Source: Alphaproteobacteria bacterium (lineage in GTDB: Bacteria; Pseudomonadota; Alphaproteobacteria; Rs-D84). Taken from it: a DNA stretch of 34,822 nucleotides. The notes below the pieces were generated by a model. The model did not search any database. It had not been told where the DNA came from and saw only the letters and a list, made by a program, of their open reading frames with translations. The stretch lies in assembly GCA_016285415.1 (NCBI GenBank), contig JAEEQU010000001.1, forward strand, positions 1 through 34,822, given 5' to 3'. Shown piece after piece: positions 4,460 through 32,800 of the stretch (its first letter is position 1; each line of letters starts with the position of its first letter). The position numbers and the translations under genes were made by a program.

Positions 4460-5335
4460 TTATTTTTTGCGGCCATACATTCTGTTAAAGTGTAATGCAT
4501 GCGCGCGTTTTACCTTTCTTAATTCTTGTTCTAATTCATATTGCCATGAAAATATACTGTTTATTTTTAATTTGTGCTTACCTTCCTGATTCAACAGGGA
4601 TGCCGGAACATCGCAATAACCATGTTTTAAATCAGCATAATACCCTGATTTATACTTTGGATCATAATTACATTTATTGGCATAAACTTCGTACAAACAA
4701 AAATCAGCAGGATAATAATGATACAATATTGTAAATTTATGTACACCTGTCTTAAACAGCACACTAAAACACAAAACATCTTTTTTCCCATCAATGTGAT
4801 TAAATGTTCGCTGTGTTAATCTTTTTTTGGCCATATAATCATCGGTATCCGAATCAAATTTAAATTTCTTAATTTTTGCATCTGTATATTCATCGCATTT
4901 AAAATCAACGGTATTCAAAAATAGCATATAATCTAATTTGGCAACTGGACGATACAGCATTTTGCCTACTTTATCTTTATTTTGATAATTCAAGTTATGA
5001 TCCCAAATCGTCAAAGTATTGTCTGCATTAATAACCACAAAAAAATCATCTATCGGACGAATCAACGATTTTTCCGTGCGACCGCCTAACTGTTCTTCCA
5101 GTTTCCAATAATCAACACATGCATTGGCCACGGGTATATTGTACTTTTCGGCCAATGTATACCGACGGCCCATGGTACGATCAGAACGGGCTTGGTCCGC
5201 CGCCGGACATATACTGTACCCATTGATATTACACATCTCGTGGTCGCCAAACAAACCATATAAATCCATATGGGAACCACAATACCAATCGTTTATGATA
5301 AATTCACAATGCGGGATATTTACAAATTCAGACAT
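4460..5335 (-). CDS. Hypothetical protein with a Cys/His-rich N-terminus
   Basis: A 291-aa ORF ending 10 nt before the hydrolase start. I recognise no family. The N-terminus reads IPHCEFIINDWYCGSHMDLYGLFGDHEMCNINGYSIC. Confidence 0.6.
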   Translation of the reverse strand: MSEFVNIPHCEFIINDWYCGSHMDLYGLFGDHEMCNINGYSICPAADQARSDRTMGRRYTLAEKYNIPVANACVDYWKLEEQLGGRTEKSLIRPIDDFFVVINADNTLTIWDHNLNYQNKDKVGKMLYRPVAKLDYMLFLNTVDFKCDEYTDAKIKKFKFDSDTDDYMAKKRLTQRTFNHIDGKKDVLCFSVLFKTGVHKFTILYHYYPADFCLYEVYANKCNYDPKYKSGYYADLKHGYCDVPASLLNQEGKHKLKINSIFSWQYELEQELRKVKRAHALHFNRMYGRKK

Positions 5336-5523
5336 TATTATGCGACCTTACTTTTACTCTCACACTCCCGATACTTATAGTTGTTTTATAGCATAATTTA
5401 CATAAAAATCAATGCAGATATATCAAACCGATTTTTTATATTTTTCCCACAAATTCGCAAAACCATTTTCGGCCTTGTTCGCATCAGACACAATCGCCAA
5501 ATAAGCATAACAATATAATGAAT

Positions 5524-6027
5524 TTATCGGGTCGTTATATCACGACCCTGCTGTTGTTGCAGTGGTGGCAATGGTTGATACTTTACCAAATTTGGATTTG
5601 CCTGTAATACCTGTTGAACACATCTGCCAATGTAATTCGCAACTTTATCCTCTGGGTCACTAAGAGTCGGGTAAATCCACCGCCTTGCCCCCGATGGATA
5701 TTCTTTGATAACCTTGTCTTTTACATACCACTTATACACTGATTCCAGAACCTTAAATATCGTCTCTGGATTTTCCACCTGTTTGTCTTTGAAAATTATT
5801 GTCATCCCAAAATATGACCCTGATCGTCCCTGATACCCCTGAAATGGCCGATTTTGTTCCCCATAGATAAGATAACTATATGCTATATTATTTCCAACAA
5901 GACGTTTAATATCTTTTTTTATTCCAGTATCTGATGTATAAAAACCTTCACAAAGCGCACGCCCAAGATCACTGCACTTTGAAATTTCCTGACCAATTAC
6001 AACCCCATGAACTATTAATTCTGCCAT
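5524..6027 (-). CDS. Hypothetical protein
   Basis: ORF with a GGAG RBS 8 nt before the ATG at 6027 (MAELIVHGVVIGQ...). The C-terminal tail is Gln/Pro-rich. I recognise no family and see no signal peptide. Confidence 0.55.
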   Translation of the reverse strand: MAELIVHGVVIGQEISKCSDLGRALCEGFYTSDTGIKKDIKRLVGNNIAYSYLIYGEQNRPFQGYQGRSGSYFGMTIIFKDKQVENPETIFKVLESVYKWYVKDKVIKEYPSGARRWIYPTLSDPEDKVANYIGRCVQQVLQANPNLVKYQPLPPLQQQQGRDITTR

Positions 6028-6114
6028 TGGTATACTCCGATTATCATTGTTATAATGATGATACCATAAAAATTGCAACTTCTCAACTGCGCATCATGGT
6101 CATATTTTAAAAAA

Positions 6115-6675
6115 CTATTTTACTGGCATCACAAAATACACTTCCGCCTTGCGCGGTGGCAATGCCGTATTCCCCGCATCATAAAACAATTCGCCATCTT
6201 TGTGCACAATTTTTATATTTCCACAACCTATTCCTGTATCGTGTTCGCCGCGCGTATCATTATAGTGCGGATACCGTGTTGAATCGATTACACGCAATTC
6301 CATATTTTCATCATCGTTATTTAATACCTTGTCAACGAACATACAGTGCCCCGCCCCATCGGGAAACACCACAACACAAATACACCGCGGCACTGGTTCC
6401 AACAAGAAATGCCAATATTTAAAATTCTCGCGATTATTATAAACGAAATAAAAATCCTGACAGAAAAATCTGTTTATCTTAATAAAATCATTTGCCCGCA
6501 AAAAATGTCGTAATTCCACCAATGCCCGACGATACCCCATTTGAAACAGACACCAATATACAAACCCACTGCAATCCATATGAAATGAATTTTTTCCATC
6601 TATGCTATCAATATAATTGGAATGATTATATTCCGATATTATTTTTTGATTTAGAATTTTATCTATAAAATCCAT
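6115..6675 (-). CDS. NlpC/P60-superfamily (papain-like) cysteine hydrolase-like protein, apparently cytosolic
   Basis: HMDCSGFVYW is the catalytic-Cys context typical of NlpC/P60. About 75 aa later come GAGHCMFV and RVIDST, candidates for the His and the third residue. No signal peptide. GGGG RBS. Confidence 0.55.
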   Translation of the reverse strand: MDFIDKILNQKIISEYNHSNYIDSIDGKNSFHMDCSGFVYWCLFQMGYRRALVELRHFLRANDFIKINRFFCQDFYFVYNNRENFKYWHFLLEPVPRCICVVVFPDGAGHCMFVDKVLNNDDENMELRVIDSTRYPHYNDTRGEHDTGIGCGNIKIVHKDGELFYDAGNTALPPRKAEVYFVMPVK

Positions 6676-11365: not shown

Positions 11366-12076
11366 TTATTTAACGACACCGTTTTTAATTGTTATGCGTC
11401 TATCTGCGCGATTCGCCAATGACATATCATGCGTCACAAACAGCATCGCCATTTTATTCTTGCGCACCAAATCAAGCAACAATTCAAATACCGCGACCGC
11501 ATGATTTGGATCCAAACTGCCCGTGGGTTCATCGGCCAACAAAATATCTGGCATATTTGCCAATGCACGCGCAACCGCGGTGCGCTGTTGTTCACCCCCA
11601 GACATTTGCCCCGGTAAATGCGATGCACGATGCGCAACATTTGCGGCCTTTAATAATTTCATTGCGCGCGCAACCGCCACATCTTCGGCGACACCCGATG
11701 CCAACATCGGCAACATAACATTTTCCACCGCCGTAAAATCAGACAATAAATTATGACGCTGATATACAAATCCCATTTTGCGACGACGAATCATTGTACG
11801 CATTTCATCGTTCATTGTATGCACTGGGGTTCCTGAAACCAAAATACTGCCCCCTGATGGTTTATCCAATAATCCAACGCATTGCAACAAAGTTGATTTT
11901 CCAGAACCAGATGGGCCAACAAGTGCGACAATTTCGCCACGGTGCAAATCAAACCCACCACCAGTTAAAATATGTAACGGCTGGCCACCTTCTATAAATG
12001 TCTTTTTTATATCACGCACCGACAGGACGACTTCGCCCTGCTTTGCCCGCGATAAAGAATTTAATATAGATGCCAT
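11366..12076 (-). CDS. lolD: Lipoprotein-releasing ABC transporter ATP-binding protein LolD
   Basis: Walker A GPSGSGKST, signature MSGGEQQR, Walker B LLADEPTG, H-loop VTHD. Adjacent to the LolC/E-type permease. Confidence 0.9.
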   Translation of the reverse strand: MASILNSLSRAKQGEVVLSVRDIKKTFIEGGQPLHILTGGGFDLHRGEIVALVGPSGSGKSTLLQCVGLLDKPSGGSILVSGTPVHTMNDEMRTMIRRRKMGFVYQRHNLLSDFTAVENVMLPMLASGVAEDVAVARAMKLLKAANVAHRASHLPGQMSGGEQQRTAVARALANMPDILLADEPTGSLDPNHAVAVFELLLDLVRKNKMAMLFVTHDMSLANRADRRITIKNGVVK

Positions 12077-12753
12077 TACTTTATTTCCCTTCCATCTTTA
12101 TCCATAATAACACTTTGTTTCTTTTTTTCCAGTACAGAAATTATCTTTTTTGCTGTTTCTGGCGCCAGCACATATCCAACCCGAATTCCATATCCCTTGA
12201 TTTTATCGGACAATTCTTGTTCTCTATCTAACGCCGCATCTATATTAATACCCTGTTGGAAACGGCCACGACAATAATATTCTATTTCTTCTGGGGCAAA
12301 TCCAAATATTGCCCCATACAGAACATCATTGCGTTTATTTTGCACATTTGGCAATTCCGGATTTAATTTAATTATATTTTCATATTCATCTGATAATTTT
12401 TCATCATAACTTTTACTTTTTGATTTTATATAATCAATAACATGTAATCTTGTTTTTTCATCTGGAATATAATTTTTAAACTCTGTTTGAAATCCCCACC
12501 TATCATCTGCATTAAGCATTTCAAAATCAGCAAAAAAACCATACAGTGCAATCTTTTTCATATAATCTGCCTGTGTCACATTATCCGGCATTTTATATTT
12601 GTGAAATAATTTTATATTATTAATACCGATTTTATTTAATTGTTGTTCCAAATCTTTTGCGGACGAATCCCATTCTCTGCCATAGGCATATGAATGCTCT
12701 AACGCAATTTCTGCTAATTTTATTTCAATTGATTTATCCAATTCTTTATTCAT
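12076..12753 (-). CDS. Hypothetical cytosolic protein inserted between lolC/E and lolD
   Basis: A 225-aa ORF whose ATG lies within the last 8 nt of lolC/E (GAGGTG RBS) and whose TAA shares its last base with the lolD ATG. It is very AT-rich and has no signal peptide or TM helix. Confidence 0.6.
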   Translation of the reverse strand: MNKELDKSIEIKLAEIALEHSYAYGREWDSSAKDLEQQLNKIGINNIKLFHKYKMPDNVTQADYMKKIALYGFFADFEMLNADDRWGFQTEFKNYIPDEKTRLHVIDYIKSKSKSYDEKLSDEYENIIKLNPELPNVQNKRNDVLYGAIFGFAPEEIEYYCRGRFQQGINIDAALDREQELSDKIKGYGIRVGYVLAPETAKKIISVLEKKKQSVIMDKDGREIK

Positions 12754-13999
12754 TTCGCAACACCTCTACTGGATCAGTGTTTGCGGCCTTCCATGCTGGA
12801 TAAATTGTTGCCAAGAATGCCAATGCTATCGCAATAACTGCGATACCAATTACAGTTATTGGTTCAAGACGCGATGGCAACTCTGATAAATAATATAGTT
12901 CTGCTGGGAACAAATCACGTCCCGTTACCCATTGGAAAAATTTACGTATCGGTTCAATATAAATTGCGACAACAACCCCCAATGCCGTTCCAAATATCGC
13001 ACCGATAATACCAATACTTGTTCCCGACAAAATAAATATACGCATCATTGAACGACGCGAAACCCCAAATGTCCGCAACACCGCAATATCACGCGATTTA
13101 TCTTTGACCAACATAACAAGTGACGAAACAATGTTAAATGCCGCGACAATAACTATTAACATCAGAATCAAAAACATAACATTTGATTCAACCTGTAGCG
13201 CACCAACAAATCCACGATTCAAATCGCGCCAATCACGCACAACATATCCATCAGGCAATACAGAAATCAATGCATCGCGAACCGAATCTGTATTTTCTAC
13301 ATCTTTTAAGAATAAATCTATGTGTGTTACCGAATTCCCAATATTCAAATATTTCTGTGCCGTTTCCAGTGGCATAAACACATAACCAGAATCATATTCA
13401 TACATTCCCATAAAGAACGATGCTTCAACTGGATATGACATAATTCTTGGCATTGTACCAAATGCGGTTGGTGTCGCACCATTTGCCGAAACCAATGATA
13501 TATTATCACCACGTCCAACACTAAGTTTACGCGCCAATGTTGCACCAACCACCAATTCACCATCACGAATTTCTGTTAGTTTCTTGCCGTATACGCGCGT
13601 TCCAGTTGTTGTTTTTTCCGCCAAATCAGACATACGAATTCCGCGAACCATCGCACCCGAATTATTGCCATCTGCGGTCACCATAACCTGCCCTTCGGCA
13701 ATTGGCACAATAGAAGTTACCGCATTCGCAATTTTTTTGCTTTCGCGCATTTTGCTAATAAGAAAATCGTAATCTGCAATTGCACCATCCTGATGATAAA
13801 CAACAACATGGCCGTTCATCCCAACGATTCGTGATAATAATGTATCGTGAAAGCCACCCATTACCGACATTACAACAATCAATGTTGCCACACCCAACAT
13901 TATACCTATTAGTGAAACCCACGACACCACCGAGCCAAAACCACGTCTTTTGGCGGCCAAATACCTAAATGCAATTTTTCTTTCTAGTTTTGTAAACAT
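12746..13999 (-). CDS. lolC: Lipoprotein-releasing ABC transporter permease, LolC/LolE family
   Basis: KIAFRYLAAKRRGFGSVVSWVSLIGIMLGVATLIVVMSVMGGF N-terminus, a large periplasmic loop and a C-terminal FtsX-type 3-TM bundle. 417 aa. Confidence 0.9.
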   Translation of the reverse strand: MFTKLERKIAFRYLAAKRRGFGSVVSWVSLIGIMLGVATLIVVMSVMGGFHDTLLSRIVGMNGHVVVYHQDGAIADYDFLISKMRESKKIANAVTSIVPIAEGQVMVTADGNNSGAMVRGIRMSDLAEKTTTGTRVYGKKLTEIRDGELVVGATLARKLSVGRGDNISLVSANGATPTAFGTMPRIMSYPVEASFFMGMYEYDSGYVFMPLETAQKYLNIGNSVTHIDLFLKDVENTDSVRDALISVLPDGYVVRDWRDLNRGFVGALQVESNVMFLILMLIVIVAAFNIVSSLVMLVKDKSRDIAVLRTFGVSRRSMMRIFILSGTSIGIIGAIFGTALGVVVAIYIEPIRKFFQWVTGRDLFPAELYYLSELPSRLEPITVIGIAVIAIALAFLATIYPAWKAANTDPVEVLRNE

Positions 14000-14026
14000 C
14001 GTTCACTTCTATTTTATCATACAATA

Positions 14027-15346
14027 TTACTGGCGCAAGTAATTCCGCAACGCATCCCCCGTCAATGGCGCATCGTCCATATCTTCTGGATTAACAATAG
14101 ACACTATACGCGGCGACATAAACACAACCAATTCTGCGAATGGACTAATCAATGTTTCTGGGGTTGTTACAAACGAATGCGTTGGAATACCAATTATAAT
14201 ATAATTGTCACCAACACTGGACGGAATCGCAAACGAAGAAAGTTCACCATTGCTTGTCCGCAATACAATTTTCGCATCTATTTTTTTACGACCCGCAAAA
14301 TCGCTATACTTCGCAGATGCACCAATAATCAGGTCTGTTTCCAATCTTTCTTCTTTACTGCATTGTCCAATATCAAACCGTGATTGCCACCCATCCGGAA
14401 CAACAAAATGCCCCTGAGATACCAATACCACATTTGCCTGTTGCGACAAAAATTCCTGTAATGTTTTGGTGTTTATTTCCGGACCAACAACCAATGTACG
14501 TCCCACAACCCCCGGAATAGACATCTTGATATTCTTTTCCCCAAACGCTGGTAACAAATTCATCCAAATAATTGGATTATCTGTCCGTGGATACACACGA
14601 TAAACATCCATATCCCATGACATCACATATTTCTTGGAAGATATATCGGAAATTATACGTGTAACCTCGCGTTCTGTTTGAAAATTACCCTCAAATATCA
14701 ATGTATTATCCGCCCAATCAACAATCAGATTACGCACATCCGCACCATGCATCGCATCAAGCAACGCCATAACAATTGTATCATTATGTGGCATCTTGAT
14801 TAACCATTTTGCGCGATTAAATAATTTGATTTCGCCAAGCGCCGCATCATATGTGTAATAAACACGTCCCAAACGCGCAATTAAATCTATGGCGTCTGAC
14901 AAATTACCTGATGCAATTGACCCAGAAACCTTTTCTATAACGTGCTCTTGCTCCACAACGGCGATATCTGTTCCTTCTAATAATTTATTTAATGCGGATG
15001 GAACACTTTGCTTTTTAAATTCATAATCTGACACCGTTAAATCAGAAGGTAATTCATCCCCTTTATCTACGCGCACCATTTCTATTTTTTCTTCGGGTAC
15101 AACAGATACAACCGACTGATTATTCCAATCTACCGTGCAACGACGTGGTAATTCCACCGAAAAGCGACGCGCCGTATCTGTGGTTAATGCCGCTTTCTTG
15201 GGAAAAATAGGCACAGAATTTTCATCTATGACTAAATTATCTATTACCTGAACGGTATCATATTCAATTGTATTGGTTTCATTTGGTCCTGTGGCGCACC
15301 CAAACATCACCAATGCAATTAAAACAAAATTTAATAATTTCTTCAT
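14027..15346 (-). CDS. Outer-membrane lipoprotein with secretin-like N-domain and C-terminal features
   Basis: Lipobox LVMFGC. NolW/secretin-N-like block LLDAMHGADVRNLIVDWADNTLIFEGNFQTEREVTRIISDI. YVMSWDMDVYRVY resembles the start of a secretin domain, and the C-terminal AELVVFMSPRIV resembles the conserved secretin end. The ATG at 15346 has a GGGTGA RBS. Confidence 0.45.
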   Translation of the reverse strand: MKKLLNFVLIALVMFGCATGPNETNTIEYDTVQVIDNLVIDENSVPIFPKKAALTTDTARRFSVELPRRCTVDWNNQSVVSVVPEEKIEMVRVDKGDELPSDLTVSDYEFKKQSVPSALNKLLEGTDIAVVEQEHVIEKVSGSIASGNLSDAIDLIARLGRVYYTYDAALGEIKLFNRAKWLIKMPHNDTIVMALLDAMHGADVRNLIVDWADNTLIFEGNFQTEREVTRIISDISSKKYVMSWDMDVYRVYPRTDNPIIWMNLLPAFGEKNIKMSIPGVVGRTLVVGPEINTKTLQEFLSQQANVVLVSQGHFVVPDGWQSRFDIGQCSKEERLETDLIIGASAKYSDFAGRKKIDAKIVLRTSNGELSSFAIPSSVGDNYIIIGIPTHSFVTTPETLISPFAELVVFMSPRIVSIVNPEDMDDAPLTGDALRNYLRQ

Positions 15347-15361
15347 GTTTATCACCCGTTG

Positions 15362-15759: not shown

Positions 15760-16149
15760 ATGAGAATGTTTAAATTATTTTTATTTGCTGGAATATTGGG
15801 ACTTTGCGCATGTTCGTCACCCAACGGGGGCAGCATAGATAACGCCACAATCTTAAATTGGGAAAACGAATCAGTCACAACCGAGCAATTTGTTCGCGAC
15901 CACAAAGCATGTTTGGGAATAACCCAACCATCATATATGCCGCGTTCGCGTCTTGCAAAATTATTATCCCCGAATCAGAGTGCCCGTATGCCCGATTGGG
16001 ACGGTCTGTGGGTAACCTTTCAGTCAAACGAATACCGTGATGTCGGCCAACGCGCATTACTGTCTGTTCCGCGTAACACCACGTCCAAGTCCGTTGGTTC
16101 ATACCGGAAATGTATGTTTAAACGCGGGTATTTATTACGTGCCGTATAA
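15760..16149 (+). CDS. Small lipoprotein
   Basis: Signal peptide with lipobox MRMFKLFLFAGILGLCAC. 129 aa. Confidence 0.6.
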   Translation: MRMFKLFLFAGILGLCACSSPNGGSIDNATILNWENESVTTEQFVRDHKACLGITQPSYMPRSRLAKLLSPNQSARMPDWDGLWVTFQSNEYRDVGQRALLSVPRNTTSKSVGSYRKCMFKRGYLLRAV

Positions 16150-16202: not shown

Positions 16203-16904
16203 ATGAAACGTAACCTGTGGTTTTGGCTTTATTTTATTGTGGCTATATTGCTTGCAATATACTTTGCAACACGAATCATTATGACATTTATGGGATATGG
16301 CCCAATTGCCAAGGTTAAAAATATACATATTTCTGCCGATACAGAAACCCAGGATTTAACCGCAATTGCGGCCGCAACGGGAATTTCATCGGGAACAAAT
16401 ACACATTCGGTCAATCTTGAATTGGTAAATGCACGATTGCTTACAACACCATGGGTTCGCGAATCGGCGGTTCGGCGATTACCGAACGGAAATTTATCTG
16501 TAAAAATACACCTTTATCGTGCGGTTGCGGCATTGAACGAAGGTAATTATTATTACCCACTTTCCGCCGATGGCAAAAAAATTCAAAAGCCATCCGAAGA
16601 CAAGGCACCGGGAACTGTTGTTTTTCGCGGAAATGTTCCAAAAGATATTGGTGATATAACCAAGGCGGCAACGAATCTTATCAAAGACCTTGATTATCTT
16701 GAATTCATAGATAACCGCCGGTGGAATCTTGTTACAAACGGGGGCATTACGGTAATGTTGCCAGAAAAGGAAATTTCAGATAAAAACAAAGATCCAATCG
16801 CAGCAATCGCGTCTTTGGTGGTGTTGAATAATAAATACAATATTTTAAAGAAAGATATCAAAGTAATAGATATGCGGGATACCGCACGGATTTTGATAAA
16901 ATGA
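16203..16904 (+). CDS. ftsQ: Cell division protein FtsQ
   Basis: N-terminal TM helix, a POTRA-like region with LLTTPWVRESAVRRLPNGNLSVKI, and an ATGA overlap with ftsA. Confidence 0.85.
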   Translation: MKRNLWFWLYFIVAILLAIYFATRIIMTFMGYGPIAKVKNIHISADTETQDLTAIAAATGISSGTNTHSVNLELVNARLLTTPWVRESAVRRLPNGNLSVKIHLYRAVAALNEGNYYYPLSADGKKIQKPSEDKAPGTVVFRGNVPKDIGDITKAATNLIKDLDYLEFIDNRRWNLVTNGGITVMLPEKEISDKNKDPIAAIASLVVLNNKYNILKKDIKVIDMRDTARILIK

Positions 16905-18673
16905 ATATGATAGATTCGGCATTTTTATGTCTTGATATTGGCACATGTGGTGTCCGTGGAATTGCGCACCGCGTACGTAATGCAACCATTGACCGCAGCG
17001 CATATTATTCCATAGATAATTTTGATACGGTTTTTGCATTAAAATCTGTTATTGATGAATTGGAACAAAAAATCGGCATGCGATTTGATAATGCATATAT
17101 AACTGGGAATTTTGGACCATCATTATTTAAACTATCACCACAAAATACGGTATGGCAAAACGAACATAAAATTACACCTGGGGATATAAAATCCCAGATT
17201 GGTAAAATTGATATTCCAGACGGTTTTTATTCAATGCATATTATACCGTTGCGTTATGATACACCAAAAATACGGAATATGTTATCACCTATTGGCCACA
17301 CCGACAGACAGTTAGTATCCGCATTTTCCGCGTTATGTTATGACAGTGAATATATGAGCAAGATTCAAGAATTGTTACGACATGCACATATTCAACCCGC
17401 CGCATTTTATGCCCCACACTTTCTATTACACAGCGCATTTCATGATGTCAAAGAACCAATGATGTTTATTGATATGGGTGCCGAAAATACGACTGTATCC
17501 ATTTGGACCCCACGCGGTTTGGTATGGTACGATGCGCCTGCAATTGGCGGAAATGATTTAACCAGCACAATATCTACGAACCTGGCAATATCATTTTCTG
17601 AATCCGAACGCATAAAACGCAATGTTGCAAACCTTAAATCAAATGATATGGCACGGTTTAGCCCGGCGGACAGCGCATACGCATTTTCCTGTGCGGATGT
17701 TAATGATATTGTAATTCCATTTTACACTGATTTAATTCAACAAATAAAAACAGACGTCACACCACAAATTGAAAAGTATAAACCAACACGAATTATTTTG
17801 ACTGGTGGTGGCGCAAATATTGATGGTTTGGTTGATATGTTGTCGGATGCATTTGACTTGCCAATAAATGTTGGAACCCAAGATGTTGTCGTGCGTGCAT
17901 TGGCCGACTATATATGGCATATCCAAGAACCGCACCGCAAGAAATACTTGGCGCGCATCGCCCGTATTCAACGCTTTACCGATAAATTATCCAATATTTT
18001 CCATATTAAAAAGCGCAAACAAAAACAAAAAATTGTTCCAATTATGCCAAGCACTTTGTGCTTTGATATGAAGGTTCCCGAAACATATACAATGTTTAAA
18101 TCTGCGGGAATAAATGCAATTCATGTTGATATAATGGATGGTCTGTATGTTGATACCATTGCTGGCGGCCTTGATGAATTGCGTCAAATTCGCGCATCAT
18201 GGGATGGGCATCTGCATGTTCATTTAATGACCGAGGCACCAACCGAATGGGCACGTGGCACAATTGATGCCGGTGCCGACACAATCATACTGTCCACTAA
18301 TACGGCGGGGCTTCGCGTTGCAGTTCAAAATGTGCGTGCGGCCAAGCGACGCGTTGGCATTGCCCTTAATCCCGATTCGCCGATATCATTATTAAAAACC
18401 ATTTTACGTGATTTGGACGAAGTAATGATTATGGCGGTTCAGCCCGGCGCGGCGGGCCAGAAATTTGATGCAAGTGTTTTAAAGAAAATAACCGCACTTG
18501 CCGCAACACGTAAAAAATATGGATTAAAGTTTGTAATATCTGTTGATGGTGGAATTACCGATGATGTTGCAAAACTATGCTGGAACGCGGGCGCCGATGT
18601 TTTGGTCAGTGGTTCATACCTTGGCAAAGCAACTGATTTTCCATTGGCGGTTCAATCATTATTAAAAAAATAA
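16901..18673 (+). CDS. ftsA: FtsA (residues ~1-370) fused in frame to a ribulose-phosphate 3-epimerase domain (residues ~382-590)
   Basis: FtsA motifs: LCLDIGTCGVRG, HIIPLRYD, FIDMGAENTTVSIW, GGNDLTST, IILTGGGANIDGL. Rpe motifs: MPSTLCFDM, HVDIMDG, HVHLMT, MAVQPGAAGQ, SVDGG, VSGS. There is no stop codon between the two halves, and I see no SD before the internal ATG at 18044. Confidence 0.8.
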   Translation: MNMIDSAFLCLDIGTCGVRGIAHRVRNATIDRSAYYSIDNFDTVFALKSVIDELEQKIGMRFDNAYITGNFGPSLFKLSPQNTVWQNEHKITPGDIKSQIGKIDIPDGFYSMHIIPLRYDTPKIRNMLSPIGHTDRQLVSAFSALCYDSEYMSKIQELLRHAHIQPAAFYAPHFLLHSAFHDVKEPMMFIDMGAENTTVSIWTPRGLVWYDAPAIGGNDLTSTISTNLAISFSESERIKRNVANLKSNDMARFSPADSAYAFSCADVNDIVIPFYTDLIQQIKTDVTPQIEKYKPTRIILTGGGANIDGLVDMLSDAFDLPINVGTQDVVVRALADYIWHIQEPHRKKYLARIARIQRFTDKLSNIFHIKKRKQKQKIVPIMPSTLCFDMKVPETYTMFKSAGINAIHVDIMDGLYVDTIAGGLDELRQIRASWDGHLHVHLMTEAPTEWARGTIDAGADTIILSTNTAGLRVAVQNVRAAKRRVGIALNPDSPISLLKTILRDLDEVMIMAVQPGAAGQKFDASVLKKITALAATRKKYGLKFVISVDGGITDDVAKLCWNAGADVLVSGSYLGKATDFPLAVQSLLKK

Positions 18674-18675
18674 TT

Positions 18676-19086
18676 TTACCTAATTGTTATTTTTCGACCG
18701 TCATCTAATTCAGTAATATCAATATGTACCGTATCAGCGGGCAACATATCAGATGCGATATCTGGCCATTCAATCAGTGTTATATCATTTTGCACCGCAT
18801 GCCCAAGGCCAATTTCAACCAATTCTGCGACATCTGATATTCTATATAAATCAAAATGTGAGATTTTTGTTTTTCCCGCAATATATGTTTGAACCAGTGT
18901 AAATGTCGGACTTGGCACAACCGTATCCGCGCCACAAAGCGTTTGAATTATTGTTCGTGCAATTTCAGATTTTCCAACACCCAAATCCCCATGCAATGCG
19001 ACCGTCATCGGCTGGTGCAGAGTTTTTGCAAATTCACGCGCCCAGTTTCTTGTCTCGTCAATATTTTTTGTTATAAATGTTTTCAT
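18676..19086 (-). CDS. tsaE: tRNA t6A37 biosynthesis ATPase TsaE
   Basis: GDLGVGKS P-loop, SPTFTLV, HFDLYR. 136 aa. Confidence 0.9.
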   Translation of the reverse strand: MKTFITKNIDETRNWAREFAKTLHQPMTVALHGDLGVGKSEIARTIIQTLCGADTVVPSPTFTLVQTYIAGKTKISHFDLYRISDVAELVEIGLGHAVQNDITLIEWPDIASDMLPADTVHIDITELDDGRKITIR

Positions 19087-19092
19087 ATTTGC

Positions 19093-21081
19093 CTACTCCA
19101 ATAATAACAAATCATCTTCCATTTTGTGAATTGTATCACGAATTTCGGCCGCCGTTTCAAAATCAAGATTCTCGGCCGCCTTGTGCATTTTTTGTGTAAG
19201 TTTTTTGATTTCTTTGCGCATCGTTTCCGCGTCCCAAACACCTTCTTTACTATACAAAAACTTATGCTTTTTATCTGTTTTTTCTTCTTTTTCTTTGACT
19301 TCGTCAAATACGGCCTTGGATATTGTTTTTGGTGTTATACCATGTTCGGTATTATACGCCATTTGTTTTTCACGACGCCGCGCTGTCTCGGAAAGCGCCG
19401 CATTCATAGAATCTGTCATAACATCCGCATACAATATTACACGGCCATTTGCATTTCTTGCCGCCCGCCCAATTGTCTGAATCAGCGACCGCGTTGAACG
19501 CAAGAATCCTTCTTTATCGGCATCCATTATTGCGACCAATTCACATTCGGGAACATCCAATCCTTCGCGCAATAGGTTTATTCCAACCAATACATCAAAT
19601 TTTCCCATACGCAAATCACGTAACAAATCTATACGTTCCAATGTTTCAATATCGCTATGCAAATACCGCGCCCGAACACCATTTTCAACAAAGTAATCGG
19701 TTAATTGTTCCGCCATTTTTTTTGTAAGCGTGGTAACCAACACCCTGCCCTTTATCGCCTTAACCTCTGCCAATAAATCATCAACCTGATTTTTAATTGG
19801 TCGCACAATACATTCTGGATCCAACAGCCCCGTTGGGCGAATAACCTGCTCTGCCACAATTCCACATGATTGTTTCATTTCCCATTCTGCAGGTGTCGCA
19901 GATACAAATATAGTTTGTGGACGCATTGCATCCCATTCATCAAATGTAAGCGGACGATTATCTATGCACGATGGCAACCGGAATCCATATTGCGCCAGTG
20001 TTTCTTTACGCGCCCTGTCCCCACGTGACATTGCTGATATTTGCGGAACCGTTACATGACTTTCGTCTATGAATAAAATCGCATCTTTTGGCAGATACTC
20101 AAACAATGTCGGTGGCGGTTGCCCCGGTGCACGCCCCGATAGATACCGCGAATAATTTTCAATACCGCGACAGGTTCCGGTATTTTCCATCATTTCTATA
20201 TCCATATTTACACGTTCACGCAAGCGCTGTTCTTCTATATATTTCATATTCTCGTGAAAATATTGCAATCTTTCGTTCAAGTCACTGCGTATTTGTCCAA
20301 TCGCCTGAACCACCGATGGCATCGGCGTTGCATAGTGTGTGTTTGGGTACACAACCGCACGGTCAATTTTGAAAAGTTTTGCCCCCGTTAGTGTATCAAA
20401 TTCCCAAATTTCTTCTATTTCATCACCCCAAAACGAAAGTTTCCATGCACGATCCTGACTGTGTGATGGGAATATATCAAGCGTATCACCGCGTACACGA
20501 AAGCATCCACGTTCAAATGCAACATCATTTCGTTTATATTGAATATTAACCAATTCGCGCATAACATCTTCACGACCAATCATATCCCCAACTTTTAATG
20601 CCAATTTCATTTCCGAATATTGTTCTGGGGTCCCAAGTCCATAAATAGATGACACCGATGACACCACAATAACGTCGCGTTCTTCTAACATTGCACGCGT
20701 TGCGCTGTGCCGCATACGGTCCAATTGGTCGTTTATAGATGCATCTTTATCAATATAAGTATCGGTTGTTGGAACATATGCTTCGGGTTGATAGTAATCA
20801 TAATATGACACAAAATATTCAACATGATTATGCGGAAAAAACGACTTCATTTCCGTATACAGTTGCGCCGCCAATATTTTATTTGGCGCCATCAACAATG
20901 CCGGTCGCCCAAGTTCCGCAATAACATTTGCCATTGTAAACGTCTTGCCCGAACCGGTTACCCCAAGCAACACCTGGGACCGACGACCATCTTTGATTCC
21001 ATTAACCAAATCAGATATGGCGGCCGGTTGGTCGCCCATGGGTTTATAATCACTTTCAAGATTAAAAATTTTTTTGTTCAC
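19093..21081 (-). CDS. uvrB: Excinuclease ABC subunit B
   Basis: The N-terminus F.L.S.YKP.GDQPAAI aligns with E. coli UvrB. Also GVTGSGKT, DESH, helicase motifs and the C-terminal UVR domain. It starts with GTG. Confidence 0.95.
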   Translation of the reverse strand: MNKKIFNLESDYKPMGDQPAAISDLVNGIKDGRRSQVLLGVTGSGKTFTMANVIAELGRPALLMAPNKILAAQLYTEMKSFFPHNHVEYFVSYYDYYQPEAYVPTTDTYIDKDASINDQLDRMRHSATRAMLEERDVIVVSSVSSIYGLGTPEQYSEMKLALKVGDMIGREDVMRELVNIQYKRNDVAFERGCFRVRGDTLDIFPSHSQDRAWKLSFWGDEIEEIWEFDTLTGAKLFKIDRAVVYPNTHYATPMPSVVQAIGQIRSDLNERLQYFHENMKYIEEQRLRERVNMDIEMMENTGTCRGIENYSRYLSGRAPGQPPPTLFEYLPKDAILFIDESHVTVPQISAMSRGDRARKETLAQYGFRLPSCIDNRPLTFDEWDAMRPQTIFVSATPAEWEMKQSCGIVAEQVIRPTGLLDPECIVRPIKNQVDDLLAEVKAIKGRVLVTTLTKKMAEQLTDYFVENGVRARYLHSDIETLERIDLLRDLRMGKFDVLVGINLLREGLDVPECELVAIMDADKEGFLRSTRSLIQTIGRAARNANGRVILYADVMTDSMNAALSETARRREKQMAYNTEHGITPKTISKAVFDEVKEKEEKTDKKHKFLYSKEGVWDAETMRKEIKKLTQKMHKAAENLDFETAAEIRDTIHKMEDDLLLLE

Positions 21082-21128: not shown

Positions 21129-23606
21129 ATGGCTATTAAACCACATCATAAACATAGAATTATTTGGGCAATACTTATTTTTATTGCTGTTATATTTATT
21201 GGGTTATTAATACTGCCTGCATGTATAAACTTGAACAAAATGCGCGACCGTTTGCAAGAGGCTATTTATACACAAACGGGGGTGGTAACAGATATCAAGG
21301 GTGATATAACATTTGGTATTTTTGGTCATCTGACTCTTGTCGCGCACGAGGTTGATACCCTGCACGGTCACACAAGAAAACTTGCTGTAAAAATACCATT
21401 TTCTGGATTGTTTGACCCTTTTAATACAGACCTTAATGGCGAAATTACCGCGACTGGTGCCGACATAACCCTTACAACACTGGAAACATTAAACCTTAAA
21501 TACGACATGATTGTTCACGATTCTGTTATACGATTCATGAACAAGGATTATTACATCATAGATGGGGTATTTAAGGGTGGAACCTTTAACGGTCTCGTTC
21601 GTACTGGCCAGCATAAATATGACATACGATTTAATGCCAAAGAATTCACAATTAAAAATAAAAACGTAGATTTGAATATTCACGGTGAATTATATCCATC
21701 CGGTGCAGCCAGTGGAACCATGGAAATATCCACAACAAAGATAAATTCTTGGTTTGAATTTGATGAGCCAAAATTAACAAGACGTGTCACGCTTTCCACT
21801 AATTTTTGGTGGGATGGGGGATACGGTTTTCGCTTTTTTGATATGACCGCTAATAGTGTTCATGGAAACATAGACCTTGATCCAACTGGCTGGACAACAA
21901 TAAATTTATTTTCGGACGATACTGATTTTGATTTTTCTTTTTTGGCACATCCCACAAGTCTACTTAAAGACACACGTATGAACGTAGATTTTTCTGGAAA
22001 TTTAAAATTTGAAAATCGGGATTTGAATCATGTCAAACTTGATATCGTTGGCACCGAACAATATATTCAGGTAAATAAAGTTGTCGCCGACGAAACAACC
22101 TTTACTGGTGGCACCGTAGATAAAAATGGTGCACACGAAGTCATGATAAAAACAATTATTGACGGCACCCCTGTTCAATGTATGTTTTCTGGCACCCTAG
22201 ATAAATGGGAATGCCAAAAATTTAAATATGGAATACTTAGCGGGACAATAAAGTCCGATAAAAAATCTGTCACCGCAACCATTTCATCAAATTCAAGTAT
22301 CACGCTTGCGGAACTTGGTGATTACACGTCACGCCTTGGCAACAAGAATTTAAATATCAAATTCAAATTTGCAAATATGGGCGGTCGGTTAATTTCTGAT
22401 AAACGCGGAACAAGTATACAATACGATTATGTATATGGTCAAAATCTGCGCTGGGCGAACCCACACATAAAATTACTGCCTGAATTTATGATGCAAGATG
22501 TAGGCAATATTATATGGACAAATAAAACAATGTCGTTCATCCCAAATTCTAATGAATGGTCATTAACCTTGCAAGATAACTTCTTTTATTTGACTGGCGA
22601 CAGTATAAAAAAATGGTTTCCAAAATTTGATTTACGCGCAGTAAATGATTTTGCATATGTTGCATCTGGATTTTATAATGACAAAGGCGACATTTCTGAT
22701 TTAACGGTAAAAATTGGTGGTCATGTATTCACCGGCAGTTCAAATGCAAAATCTATAACATTGCACACCGATAATTTAACACTTGATACTTTCTTAAATA
22801 AAAATTTCTTTGACCACTATGAAGAAATGGAATTTTTGGCGAATGCCCCCATACTTATTCCATTTGATTTTAACCGCAATATATACATTAGTGCCGACAC
22901 ATTATCATACGATCAATATACCTACAAGAACTTTGTCTATGCGTTGAAATCAGGCACACAGACATTTTCTATTACCGATAGTTCACGTGGCAATTTATTG
23001 GCAACAATCATACGTGAACATTCTGACTATGATATATTCTTGCAGTTAAATCGTTTCGTTATAAATGGCGAATTATTAACCAAAAGTTTCCCATTAAATA
23101 TATCTGACACAATGATAACTGCAGAAATGCAATTACACACATCTGGTCATATCGCACACGACATTTGGTACAATATGGCAGGTGACATGGATTTAACATT
23201 TGAAGGTGGATATTTGGACGGCATTGGATTAGATGAATTTTATGCAAACGCCACGAACCTATCACGACTTAATGTAGAAGATTATATAATACGCGCACTG
23301 GAAAGTGGCGATACCAGAATTAAAAATATGCGCGTCATTGGAAAATATGAACATGGCAATTTTGAAACCACAACACCATTTACAATTTCTGTTCGCCACG
23401 CAGATATTATTGGCGCATTAAATATTACCGATAATTTAATGACCAGCCAATTAAGTATATCTATGCGCGCAACTGCGCCAGACCCTGTTACTGTATCTGT
23501 TGCAATTGCACCAAATAATTCTCGCAGTTATTCCCTTGGCGAAATCACACAATATTTTGACCCGCCATTTATGCGTGAATTTATTAAAACACATGATAAG
23601 TTTTAA
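21129..23606 (+). CDS. AsmA-family outer-membrane biogenesis protein-like
   Basis: N-terminal anchor helix followed by an AsmA-like start (LQEAIYTQTGVVTDIKGDITFGIFGHLTLVAHEV). It is 825 aa and looks beta-rich. The assignment rests on architecture only. Confidence 0.55.
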   Translation: MAIKPHHKHRIIWAILIFIAVIFIGLLILPACINLNKMRDRLQEAIYTQTGVVTDIKGDITFGIFGHLTLVAHEVDTLHGHTRKLAVKIPFSGLFDPFNTDLNGEITATGADITLTTLETLNLKYDMIVHDSVIRFMNKDYYIIDGVFKGGTFNGLVRTGQHKYDIRFNAKEFTIKNKNVDLNIHGELYPSGAASGTMEISTTKINSWFEFDEPKLTRRVTLSTNFWWDGGYGFRFFDMTANSVHGNIDLDPTGWTTINLFSDDTDFDFSFLAHPTSLLKDTRMNVDFSGNLKFENRDLNHVKLDIVGTEQYIQVNKVVADETTFTGGTVDKNGAHEVMIKTIIDGTPVQCMFSGTLDKWECQKFKYGILSGTIKSDKKSVTATISSNSSITLAELGDYTSRLGNKNLNIKFKFANMGGRLISDKRGTSIQYDYVYGQNLRWANPHIKLLPEFMMQDVGNIIWTNKTMSFIPNSNEWSLTLQDNFFYLTGDSIKKWFPKFDLRAVNDFAYVASGFYNDKGDISDLTVKIGGHVFTGSSNAKSITLHTDNLTLDTFLNKNFFDHYEEMEFLANAPILIPFDFNRNIYISADTLSYDQYTYKNFVYALKSGTQTFSITDSSRGNLLATIIREHSDYDIFLQLNRFVINGELLTKSFPLNISDTMITAEMQLHTSGHIAHDIWYNMAGDMDLTFEGGYLDGIGLDEFYANATNLSRLNVEDYIIRALESGDTRIKNMRVIGKYEHGNFETTTPFTISVRHADIIGALNITDNLMTSQLSISMRATAPDPVTVSVAIAPNNSRSYSLGEITQYFDPPFMREFIKTHDKF

Positions 23607-29643: not shown

Positions 29644-29808
29644 TTATCTTCCCCCTTTTTCCATGCAATAATACACAATTTCAAAAAAAGTTTTAATAAA
29701 AATTTTACTTGCCACCAATGCCTTGATATATGGGTCAAAAAATGATATAATATTGGCTGGCGGGGTATGCCATATTTTACCCTTAATAAAGGAAAGGAAA
29801 CAGTAACA

Positions 29809-32800
29809 ATGTCAAAAATATATACCGAAGCAGAATTACAACATTTCTTGGATTTGTATGCCGATGACCTAACACGCATTGATGCAATTGCCACAGCGAC
29901 CGAGTTTTTAAACGATTTTGTAAAAGAAGAAGCGGATATTGAAGAAAGTGCATATAAAGAAAGTGATATTTTTGACAAAATCATCAAAACATTTTGCGGC
30001 ACCCCCCTACCAGACGGTGGCATAAAACTTAATGAACTGGGTGCCCAGGCGCTTGCGCGGTACGAATCAATTATTAATCGTGCTGCAACAATCGCGAACA
30101 AATCAGATCCAAACGATATTTACCAATTTACATCTGACCAAAATCAAATTATGTTTAATTTGGTAACATTGTCTGTATATCGTGACATGAAATTGGTTGA
30201 TCCGTCTGTTGATGCCAACAAAATGACACCCGGCCAAGTCGCAGATTTAATTGATTCCGTCAATTTAACCGATGATCAGCGCAAAGAATATTCCAACAGA
30301 TTCATTGACCTTATATTAAAAACACCAGATTTGTTTGAAAAAACGCCACCCAAGATATTAACAGATGCATACATTTTTGTACGCGAACAACTTATGGCGA
30401 ACCGAACCGACAAAGATTTGGAAAATCGGTTTAAAATCTTGGCCCAGCGCATAGATTTCCTTATAACTGGATTCGCACAAAAAATAAATTATTTTTATTC
30501 CGACCCGTCAAACATCGCAGATGTATGGGAAGGATATAACAAAATGTGCACGGTACGCAGGGCCGATTTGCGTATTACGAAACATGATAACGACGCAGAA
30601 AAGAAATACAAAGCAGATGTTGACAAGGCCGCACAGGAAACTGTGGAACGTTTGCGCGAAATCGTGGCAATGTATGAATATATGTGGAATTTAAAAGATT
30701 TAAAACCCGAAGACGCCGAAAAATTACAAAAACGCTGGCAAGAACTTTCAGACGCACTGCGGGGTGTTGAATTAACAGATGATATTCTTGCCACACTGGC
30801 ACAATATAAATTCTTGGATGAGAAAGGTGACCCCCTGCCCCAGTTCCTAGATAAAGATGGCAAACCGCAACTTGAATTTAAACCGGGGTATAAGTTAAAT
30901 CCAGATGGTCGGCTTTATCGCGTAATATCATTGGCAAAAACAGATGTCACCATGCAGAACGTCGGTGATTTGGCCACCGCCGTCAAAGATATGAATTTGT
31001 CAGAGGCACTGTCAGACCGTGTTCCATGGAAAGTTGCCGAAATATCACTTGTTGACCGTGCTGTCCAAGGTATAGAAGCAAATCCACATCGTATGCTAGA
31101 ACAAGACGAAGTGGATGCTCTGTGGCAAGAAATAGAAAAAGATGGGGGCAGTATTACTGATGCTGGATACCAGGCCGCCCTTGATGCCCAGGTTAATCAG
31201 GCCGGTGGTTTTGCTGGATTAATGGCGCAACATGTTGGACGTGATAAACCGGTTGTTATGCGTCCATTTGAATCTGTCCAAGATATTGATAAATTGGCGA
31301 AAACACGAACCGAAAAAATTGGTGCCGGGGAACGCAGACAGAAAATTGGTTTCTTTAAACGTATGTTAAAGAATTTCGGCGCCGCCGCGGTGTTTTCCGC
31401 CGGACTAACATTTATTGGCAAGGCAACTGGTATTGCATGGGCGGGCGCAGCAGTTGGAACCACACTTGGTATTGGTAACATGGTATACCAAGGTTTTAAA
31501 TGGCGTCGCGAACAGAAAAAACTTGGCAAACCAAAAGAACAATATGGCCTAAAGGCATATTTTTCTGATAAACGCAATTGGGGACCGGCGATTGCATCGG
31601 GTCTTGGGGTTGCGGCGGTAATTAGTATGGCAACTGGAAATCCAGAATTGGCCGCTGGGTTCGGTATTGGTGCAATGGCTGTTGGTGGTGGATCTGGGGC
31701 GGCAATGACATACAAAGATGCACTTGCCGCTGGTTATACACGTGGTCAGGCATTGGCGGGCGCATTGGGTGTTATGGGCGCAACCGTTGCCGGTGGTTTT
31801 GCGGGACGTGCGGCAATGAACGGTCTTGTCAATTATGTCAACACCAATACAGACAGTACACTGTTCCGCACCGAACACCAAATTGTAACTACACACGAAA
31901 CCACACAAAACCAATATCCTGATGGTTGGATAGAAGGTAATGAACATACACTTTCACAATGGGAAAGCCCACAAATGCTAGAGGCACATATAAATGGCCT
32001 AATGGACGCGGGGTTATCGCATGATGACGCGGTTCGTTATTTACTTGCATGGCATGATGTAACCGATCATAATTTGGGCGGTGGTTATTTTGATAGTATT
32101 GGCATGAATTACAGTGATGTTGCGGCATTACGCGGTTCAATAAACGGCACAATGATAAATCTTACCCCAGAATCCATGTCTGCATTTAACCACTTTAATG
32201 ATTATATATCTGGAACAAATACCGTAAGATATCCGGCGGGTTTATTCCAACCATATCATACACCAATCAGTCATGTTCTGCCCCCGAACGCAACATGGGA
32301 TGCAAATGGGATGCTGGTTCCGGGAAATGATGTTTATTCAACATGGGTTAACTGGGGTGGCGATGGTGTACAACACATACCTGTTATCACCACAGATGTT
32401 AGCAGTGTCTTTACCCCCAATGAACTGATGTTCCCAGCGGGTATCGGCACATTGGGCATTTATGAACCCCGTGTAATCCCCGCTGATTATTTATTACGTA
32501 TGCGTGAACGCACCGGCACAACTGCGGATCACATTGCACAACTGGCGAACGGTGGTAATGGTGGCAATACGGGCGATATGGGTAATACGGGAAATACTGG
32601 TGGTGCAGGTAATACAGGAACCGGTGGCGGAACACCAACACTACCAACTGGTACGGGAACTGGTGGCGGCACCGGTCCAAATCCAACCGATACGGGAACC
32701 GGTGGCGGTACTGGTTCAACCCCAACGGATACAGGAACCGGCAATGGAACTGATCCACAACCCAAAAAACGCGGTTTCTTTGGCAAATTAAAAGATGCCA

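Follow-up and report, generated by a model that had tools for sequence, protein, structure and literature searches.

In a 34,822-nucleotide stretch of DNA from an alphaproteobacterium of the order Rs-D84 (contig JAEEQU010000001.1 of GenBank assembly GCA_016285415.1, positions 1 to 34,822 of the forward strand; hereafter the window), the gene that directly follows ftsQ joins two proteins in one reading frame, the actin-like division protein FtsA and the enzyme ribulose-phosphate 3-epimerase (Rpe). The fusion is old and conserved, and with somewhat better than even confidence we interpret it as an inherited bifunctional gene fusion that would place the FtsA of this lineage and an active Rpe on one chain of ~66 kDa near the membrane. 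What is new is the domain architecture, since the FtsA and Rpe families themselves are well known.

The fusion gene (Table 1) is a single open reading frame (ORF) on the forward strand that begins with ATG, ends with TAA and contains no internal stop codon, as an initial annotation made from the DNA sequence had described. Pfam places both domains in the one protein, FtsA (PF14450) at residues 189-328 (45 bits, cut-off 31.8) and Ribul_P_3_epim (PF00834) at residues 383-573 (139.9 bits, cut-off 21.1), and an open frame of 590 codons in DNA of ~38-42% G+C that matches two curated families cannot be a chance ORF. Every motif quoted in the initial annotation lies at its place in the 590-residue protein: LCLDIGTCGVRG (residues 9-20), HIIPLRYD (113-120), FIDMGAENTTVSIW (189-202) and IILTGGGANIDGL (298-310) in the FtsA half, the basic helix and tail motif RIQRFTDKLSNIFHIKKRKQKQK (355-377) between the halves, and HVDIMDG (408-414), HVHLMT (439-444), MAVQPGAAGQ (511-520) and SVDGG (547-551) in the Rpe half. 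The AlphaFold2 (AF2) model of the fusion protein has a mean predicted local distance difference test score (pLDDT) of 88.8 and a predicted template modelling score (pTM) of 0.62, and consists of two confident domains with a helix and a disordered basic tail between them.

The fusion recurs in independent assemblies, which refutes the explanation that a sequencing or assembly error, either a lost stop codon or an indel, joined two separate genes; we give that explanation practically no weight. In a protein search, at least 120 clusters with lengths of 588-598 amino acids matched the window protein at 58-93% identity, all with FtsA and Rpe Pfam domains and derived from NCBI, ENA, JGI and Logan assemblies. 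When GTDB was scanned with one genome per species, the gene was present in 24 species representatives, labelled Candidatus Enterousia or uncultured Alphaproteobacteria and originating from buffalo, cattle, deer, chicken and the human gut, and the frame was open over 589-598 codons in all 23 full-length orthologous loci. An exhaustive search for fused relatives among the representatives of clusters at 50% identity found 19 full-length fused proteins (542-623 amino acids) and seven fragments that span the junction, down to ~29% identity, and the next matches below them were ordinary stand-alone Rpe proteins of ~215 amino acids with ~35% identity. The comparison of fused and separate genes at orthologous loci that the initial annotation had proposed therefore shows relatives that carry the fusion, not two genes. 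Two database entries, P0136 (locus L025) and P0137 (locus L031), do divide the locus into two genes and would favor an artefact, but the division in L025 comes from a scaffold gap of 10 N flanked on either side by copies of one peptide, and that in L031 is one in-frame TGA on a contig with 2.15x coverage; the affected position is variable and is occupied by Trp in some orthologs. Neither locus shows any change of frame between residue 1 and about residue 588-590, and we rejected them as examples of an ancestral two-gene state; in all independent assemblies, from many hosts and studies, the gene is a single ORF. A protein search with the FtsA half of the distant fused protein P0133 found no unfused close sister, only canonical FtsA proteins with 21-28% identity.

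Ratios of nonsynonymous to synonymous substitution rates (dN/dS) were 0.06-0.15 for the FtsA half, 0.02-0.13 for the Rpe half and 0.06-0.38 for the linker, and judged by these values both halves of the fusion are under purifying selection. The fusion is kept throughout Candidatus Enterousia and in deeper relatives, and its full range is probably the order Rs-D84. One record outside these labels, CAVGNU010000015.1 (L019), bears the title 'Bacteroides fragilis isolate H07647-L1_cleanbin_000047' and contains an Enterousia-type ftsQ / ftsA-rpe / tsaE / uvrB locus with 56% identity to the window protein; this bin is probably mislabelled or contaminated.

On profile searches and the predicted structure, the N-terminal half is most likely the divergent FtsA of the lineage. 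A profile built from 58 homologues matched FtsA best in PDB (7q6f, E = 7e-15; 3wt0, E = 1e-11), ahead of PilM (E = 4.5e-10) and MreB (E = 1e-8), and a Foldseek comparison of the AF2 model with PDB returned FtsA for all of the top 19 matches (target template modelling (TM) scores of 0.62-0.74 over 347-391 columns, compared to 0.52-0.60 for PilM), with an identity of the FtsA half to solved FtsA of 14-17%. The nucleotide-binding motifs of FtsA are present as phosphate 1 (D12-x-G14-T15), phosphate 2 (D191-x-G193-xxx-T197) and adenosine (G302-G303-G304), and of these residues D12, G14, G193, G302 and G303 never vary among the 58 homologues, while D191 and T197 are almost invariant. The Pfam SHS2_FTSA domain gave no match at E <= 0.01 in the 58 Enterousia-level homologues, including the window protein, whose N-terminal half had no match even at E <= 1. 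The same domain scores above the Pfam threshold at the aligned region of the distant fused proteins P0133 (44.4 bits), P0143 (33.2 bits) and P0139 (26.1 bits), which align end to end with the Enterousia fusion proteins, and in the AF2 model residues 74-161 form a strand-helix-strand-strand-helix arrangement that is consistent with the 1C subdomain, as are the structural alignments over full-length FtsA. The closest unfused relatives of the P0133 FtsA half are canonical FtsA proteins of 397-485 amino acids, one of which (L034) is encoded in a mraY-murD-ftsW-murG-murC-murB-ddl-ftsQ-ftsA-ftsZ cluster.

We consider it very improbable that the N-terminal half does not function as FtsA and belongs to another kind of actin-fold ATPase, PilM-like for example, that came to lie behind ftsQ by chance. 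Such a reading could draw on a Pfam PilM_2 match to the window protein (36 bits), on the NCBI label 'pilus assembly protein PilM' of some homologues, on a score for the FtsA equivalog model TIGR01174 well under its cut-off and on the failure to detect SHS2_FTSA in the window protein by sequence. However, FtsA outranks PilM in both the PDB profile search and the Foldseek comparison, SHS2_FTSA passes its threshold in fused homologues that align with the window protein from end to end, and the nearest unfused relatives are canonical FtsA. The genomic context also argues against PilM, as the gene always lies behind ftsQ (in the order ftsI-ftsQ-fusion in L027) and the window has no adjacent pilN, pilO, pilP or pilQ genes. 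The closest unfused FtsA among those found (P0325 in L033, 28% identity to the P0133 FtsA half) is encoded apart from ftsQ and ftsZ, with VirB4, Mito_fiss_Elm1 and DUF2674 genes as neighbors, and the division and cell wall (dcw) cluster there appears to be broken up as well.

For the C-terminal half, the alignments and the model indicate that the Rpe barrel is most likely catalytically active and would interconvert ribulose 5-phosphate and xylulose 5-phosphate. In Foldseek the barrel superposed on Streptococcus pyogenes Rpe (2fli; TM score 0.92, root-mean-square deviation 1.4 A, 35% identity) and on nine other Rpe entries (TM scores of 0.84-0.93), and in the residue-level alignment to 2fli the pair H408/D410, H441 and D549 correspond to HIDIMDG, CHLM and EVDGG, in agreement with the intact metal and catalytic positions read in the initial annotation; all four residues are invariant in the 58 homologues. 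The protein barely passes the NCBIfam rpe subfamily model NF004076 (165.2-166.3 bits, cut-off 165) and lies under the cut-off of the strict rpe equivalog TIGR01163 (150.8-153.3 bits, cut-off 212.6); measured against the respective cut-offs, it does less well with the related D-allulose-6-phosphate 3-epimerase model (130 bits, cut-off 271). The Rpe profile match begins at residues 379-383, and because the invariant P380 and the nearly invariant I381 precede Met382, the first barrel strand runs straight from the linker.

At the junction, the FtsA core ends in a helix with an invariant Trp (W339), and the structure prediction that the initial annotation had suggested for this region places a long helix (residues 343-366) directly after the core, followed by ~12 disordered residues rich in Lys and Arg (pLDDT below 50 at residues 371-375). 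The helix is a plausible candidate for a membrane-targeting helix of the FtsA type that is now internal, with membrane binding predicted from its amphipathic and basic character. In all 24 orthologs its best 11-residue hydrophobic moment is 0.54-0.99, compared to 0.78 for the C-terminal membrane helix of Escherichia coli FtsA, and the last 14 residues that precede the barrel motif have a net charge of +2 to +7. Across these orthologs the linker varies in sequence and retains its amphipathic, basic character, in line with the amphipathic stretch described in the initial annotation. R346, Y349 and R352 in the helix are nearly invariant in the 58 homologues. The deepest fused clade (P0141-P0145) has a shorter linker that lacks the helix.

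We judge it highly improbable that the one ORF yields two proteins, either because Rpe has its own start at the internal ATG at position 18044 or because ribosomes slip on the A-rich linker and leave a product with FtsA alone. Initiation at Met382, at the start of the barrel, would give a nearly complete Rpe, and the linker DNA is indeed rich in A. Nevertheless, no Shine-Dalgarno-like site precedes the codon equivalent to Met382 in any of the 24 orthologs (duplex free energy (dG) with the anti-Shine-Dalgarno sequence of -0.7 to +2.2 kcal/mol), and for the 20 nucleotides upstream of the ATG in the window the dG is +1.5 kcal/mol, compared to a mean of -3.5 kcal/mol for 20 gene starts in the window. 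The initial annotation was thus right that this ATG has no Shine-Dalgarno sequence, but it overstated the contrast in saying that most genes of the window have clear GGAG-like sites, as only 10 of the 20 starts reach a dG of -4 or below. The codon itself is ATG in 12 orthologs, TTG in three and TTA, TTC or TAC in nine, and several orthologs wholly lack an in-frame start codon near the beginning of the barrel. An internal start for Rpe was accordingly rejected, and so was programmed slippage, which the short and unconserved A-runs of the linker (longest run 2-7 nucleotides) do not support.

Somewhat less remote, and still improbable, is a precursor whose basic tail (residues ~367-378) is cut, so that a soluble Rpe comes free and FtsA is left with its canonical membrane helix at the C-terminus. 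The tail, rich in Lys and Arg and variable in sequence, is disordered in the model (pLDDT below 50) and lies exactly where a cut would restore a normal FtsA C-terminus; against this, the alignment of the 24 orthologs contains no conserved cleavage motif, the linker of the P0141-P0145 clade is short and helix-free, and we know of no proteolytic processing of this kind in FtsA or Rpe. From the gene structure, the fusion would most likely be translated as one stable polypeptide.

The divergent fused relatives show that each half can change while the fused architecture stays, with a dead Rpe in some lineages and an altered FtsA site in others. The Rpe half is the better kept one in 22 of the 23 fused relatives compared, with ratios of Rpe to FtsA identity to the window protein of 1.14-2.15. 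In P0140 the ratio flips to 0.75, so that the barrel is the faster-evolving half. The His and Asp residues for metal binding and catalysis are gone from this barrel, as is the PGxxGQ motif, yet its full length and its reading frame are preserved, a combination that fits a loss of catalysis with retention of the domain. P0140 (L032, positions 4568-6295) comes from a very AT-rich genome with local synteny as in the window; it is a singleton for which no close relatives were found, the nearest being 33% identical. Of the four positions, the barrel of P0135, likewise full-length and in frame, keeps only the second His; the first His and both Asp residues are gone. All four His/Asp/His/Asp residues are kept in 22 of the 24 sequences of the deep alignment, the exceptions being P0135 and P0140, and both proteins are from extremely AT-rich genomes, with Phe, Tyr, Met, Ile, Asn and Lys (FYMINK) making up 49-54% of the protein. 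Conversely, Tyr replaces the phosphate-1 Asp D12, and Asn or His replaces D191, in P0139, P0146 (in L029) and P0148, which retain all Rpe catalytic residues; by these substitutions their FtsA halves may no longer bind or hydrolyze ATP. The dead-barrel and Tyr cases are single representatives, and P0140 is without close relatives, so these patterns are suggestive only; the dead barrel kept in a divergent lineage hints that the barrel may be more than a passenger.

These relatives bear on a different account, in which the barrel would be a working part of the division protein that pairs or clusters FtsA, or whose binding of a sugar phosphate would alter FtsA assembly. Solved Rpe proteins are oligomeric, either dimers or hexamers, so a barrel only ~12 residues beyond the membrane helix could bring FtsA molecules together, and through sugar-phosphate binding the fusion would tie division to pentose phosphate status. 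Such a functional link is suggested by the persistence of the fusion and its short linker to ~29% identity, by the full-length, in-frame barrels of P0140 and P0135 without His/Asp catalytic residues, by the ratio of 0.75 in P0140 compared to 1.14-2.15 in the other 22 relatives, and by P0139, P0146 and P0148, in which the phosphate-1 Asp is Tyr and Rpe is intact. However, P0140 is a singleton whose dead barrel may simply be decaying, the model (pTM 0.62, with each domain at high pLDDT) does not point to a fixed interface of the two domains, and fused unrelated neighbor genes can persist neutrally in reduced genomes. We regard a functional link as a minority possibility that is rather unlikely. 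A bolder version of it, to which we give slightly less credence, is that the barrel is a structural or sensory module whose oligomerization or sugar-phosphate occupancy would control FtsA assembly on the membrane. If this were true, a covalent link would hard-wire pentose phosphate status to division in an organism that perhaps depends on a partner for metabolites, and the dead barrels in the most reduced lineages would reflect a second role.

Under the bifunctional reading that we favor, the N-terminal 341 residues would act as the actin-like FtsA that anchors the division machinery to the membrane, and synthesis of the protein would probably be coupled translationally to that of FtsQ. The internal amphipathic basic helix would bind the membrane, and since the barrel begins only ~12 disordered, positively charged residues beyond it, the epimerase would be tethered at the inner face of the membrane and in part at the division site; the tethering of Rpe to the membrane or division site suggested in the initial annotation is a plausible inference. 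Candidatus Enterousia belongs to the uncultured order Rs-D84, whose genomes of 0.75-1.0 Mb lack most biosynthetic pathways and part of glycolysis, retain MreB, RodA and MrdA as well as the non-oxidative pentose phosphate pathway except for transaldolase, and have been proposed to reflect a partner-dependent lifestyle (PMC12306168). The Rpe half would serve this retained pathway, with the FtsA and Rpe activities running side by side. As to its origin, the dcw cluster may have broken up in the course of genome reduction, with ftsZ leaving ftsA and rpe joining ftsA and remaining there, and the genus-wide synteny around the fusion is consistent with such a history.

Several observations weigh against this reading. 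The FtsA half scores 62.6-64.4 bits for the NCBIfam ftsA equivalog TIGR01174, under the cut-off of 175.85, and is therefore very divergent. Within the first half of the helix, the near-invariance of R346, Y349 and R352 suggests a specific protein contact and not binding to lipid alone. The persistence of the fusion to ~29% identity and the full-length dead barrels of P0140 and P0135 would be unexpected if the enzyme were purely a passenger. That the product is one stable chain is something we infer from the gene itself. Finally, it matters for this reading whether the genome has ftsZ, a second ftsA or a second rpe at another place, and the searches for them were local in scope: no second ftsA or rpe was found in the window or within 10 kb on either side of the 24 loci, tblastn with E. 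coli FtsZ as the query gave no ftsZ over the same flanks, and none is among the called genes of L026, L027, L030 and L032.

The neighborhood of the fusion is conserved. The ftsQ stop codon overlaps the start codon of the fusion as ATGA, which indicates co-transcription and probably translational coupling, and ftsQ adjoins the fusion in all 23 orthologous loci and in the distant fused loci L027, L028 and L032. The order of a 442-residue ORF (orf442), a lipoprotein-like ORF of 129 residues (orf129), ftsQ, fusion, tsaE and uvrB is syntenic throughout the genus, with tsaE in place in 20 of 24 loci. The gene calls agree with the arrangement described in the initial annotation, in which ftsZ is not downstream of the fusion, ddl is not upstream of ftsQ and tsaE and uvrB converge on the fusion; neither ftsZ nor ddl is present in the window.

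Table 1. Coordinates of the fusion gene, its parts and the flanking genes (positions in the window)
Feature	Position	Strand	Remarks
ftsQ	16203-16904	+	233 aa; Pfam POTRA_1 and FtsQ_DivIB_C
ftsA-rpe fusion ORF	16901-18673	+	590 codons and TAA
FtsA actin-fold core	16901-17923	+	residues 1-341; PDB profile search, Foldseek, motifs
SHS2/1C-equivalent region	17120-17383	+	residues ~74-161; AF2 secondary structure, Pfam in distant fused members
Long amphipathic basic helix, candidate membrane-targeting	17927-17998	+	residues 343-366; AF2, hydrophobic moment
Disordered Lys/Arg-rich tail linking helix to barrel	17999-18034	+	residues 367-378; pLDDT, charge
Rpe (beta/alpha)8 barrel	18035-18670	+	residues 379-590; Pfam, NCBIfam, Foldseek
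Rpe metal/catalytic codons	H408 18122-18124; D410 18128-18130; H441 18221-18223; D549 18545-18547	+	
Internal in-frame ATG	18044-18046	+	Met382, within first barrel strand; not conserved as start
tsaE	18676-19086	-	Pfam TsaE; convergent with fusion
uvrB	19093-21081		converges on fusion 3' end

The remaining genes of the window, which encode a MacB/FtsX-type permease, an ABC ATPase, AsmA-like, OmpA-family and PagL proteins, AspRS and UvrB, fit a reduced Gram-negative genome. Directly upstream of ftsQ, the 129-residue ORF (15760-16149, forward strand) has a signal peptide, a lipobox-like LCAC and no Pfam match; its genus-wide identity of 74-98% is above that of FtsQ or the FtsA half, L025 and the very distant L032 each have an ORF of 124-126 residues at the equivalent place, and the 129-residue protein may be an unrecognized partner of the ftsQ-ftsA unit. 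On the reverse strand, the region 11366-15355 encodes the ABC ATPase (11366-12076), the MacB/FtsX-type permease (12746-13999) and the lipoprotein-like 442-residue ORF (14027-15355), which is conserved and has no Pfam match. Since two distant loci, L026 and L032 (~30% identity), likewise have a MacB_PCD/FtsX permease and an unannotated ORF of 434 residues beside their ftsQ-fusion unit, the neighborhood predates the genus. The stop codons of the fusion (18671-18673) and tsaE (18676-18678) are 2 nucleotides apart, which leaves no room for a terminator between them, and in L025 the two genes overlap by 15 nucleotides. Further downstream on the forward strand, an 825-residue ORF (21129-23606), whose one match, to AsmA, is weak and N-terminal, diverges far more quickly than the genes around it (37-82% identity genus-wide, compared to 84-99% for the adjacent UvrB). 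A 1287-residue ORF (29767-33630, forward strand) without a Pfam match at E <= 0.001 occupies the part of the window with the highest G+C content (0.41-0.48, compared to 0.32-0.45 upstream) and may encode a large protein of the surface or for interactions.

In full-text literature searches, an FtsA-Rpe or FtsA-epimerase fusion was nowhere described, in keeping with the view of the initial annotation that no precedent was known, and nothing relevant on cell division in Rs-D84 came up. In public databases the fusion is filed under 'ribulose-phosphate 3-epimerase' or 'pilus assembly protein PilM', and because hundreds of entries carry only an Rpe or PilM name, automated genome reconstructions may miss the FtsA or the predicted membrane tethering of Rpe. 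The membrane helix of FtsA is normally thought to be needed at the extreme C-terminus, and to our knowledge no natural enzyme fusions of FtsA are known. A whole, long-lived lineage with this helix set between FtsA and a 23 kDa barrel that normally oligomerizes is a natural experiment on what FtsA tolerates or puts to use, and should the link prove functional, Rpe would be the first enzyme of central metabolism coupled covalently to the machinery of bacterial division.

Compared to canonical FtsA from E. coli, Thermotoga maritima, Staphylococcus aureus and Vibrio maritimus (PDB 7q6d, 1e4f/4a2a, 3wqt and 7q6f), the fusion shares the actin-like fold, the FtsA topology and nucleotide motifs, the position of the gene directly behind ftsQ and an amphipathic basic helix after the core; it differs in that the helix abuts the core, with the usual flexible linker missing, and lies inside the chain and not at its C-terminus, in the 212-residue enzyme domain that follows the helix and in the absence of ftsZ directly downstream. 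PilM, the type IV pilus ATPase (PDB 2ych and 5eox), has an FtsA-like fold with a 1C-type subdomain and has given its name to some entries of the fusion family, but it is a weaker match than FtsA in both profile E-value and TM score, and the fusion has ftsQ and not pilNOPQ for its context. With the stand-alone Rpe proteins of S. pyogenes (2fli), potato chloroplast (1rpx) and Synechocystis (1tqj) the fusion has in common the barrel, the His/Asp/His/Asp residues and the phosphate-binding motifs, whereas it reads PGAAGQ for the canonical PGFGGQ and VQPG for VNPG, and its barrel has no N-terminus of its own, the first strand continuing from the FtsA linker, so that the barrel would be held at the membrane and not free in the cytosol. 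Metabolic enzymes that regulate division are known from other bacteria, namely UgtP of Bacillus subtilis, OpgH of E. coli and GdhZ and KidO of Caulobacter crescentus, all of which are separate proteins that bind FtsZ reversibly and have proven regulatory effects. Like these, the fusion physically ties an enzyme of central metabolism to the early division machinery and could couple division to nutrients; unlike them, its enzyme is joined covalently to FtsA, and it is this covalent link alone that is known here.

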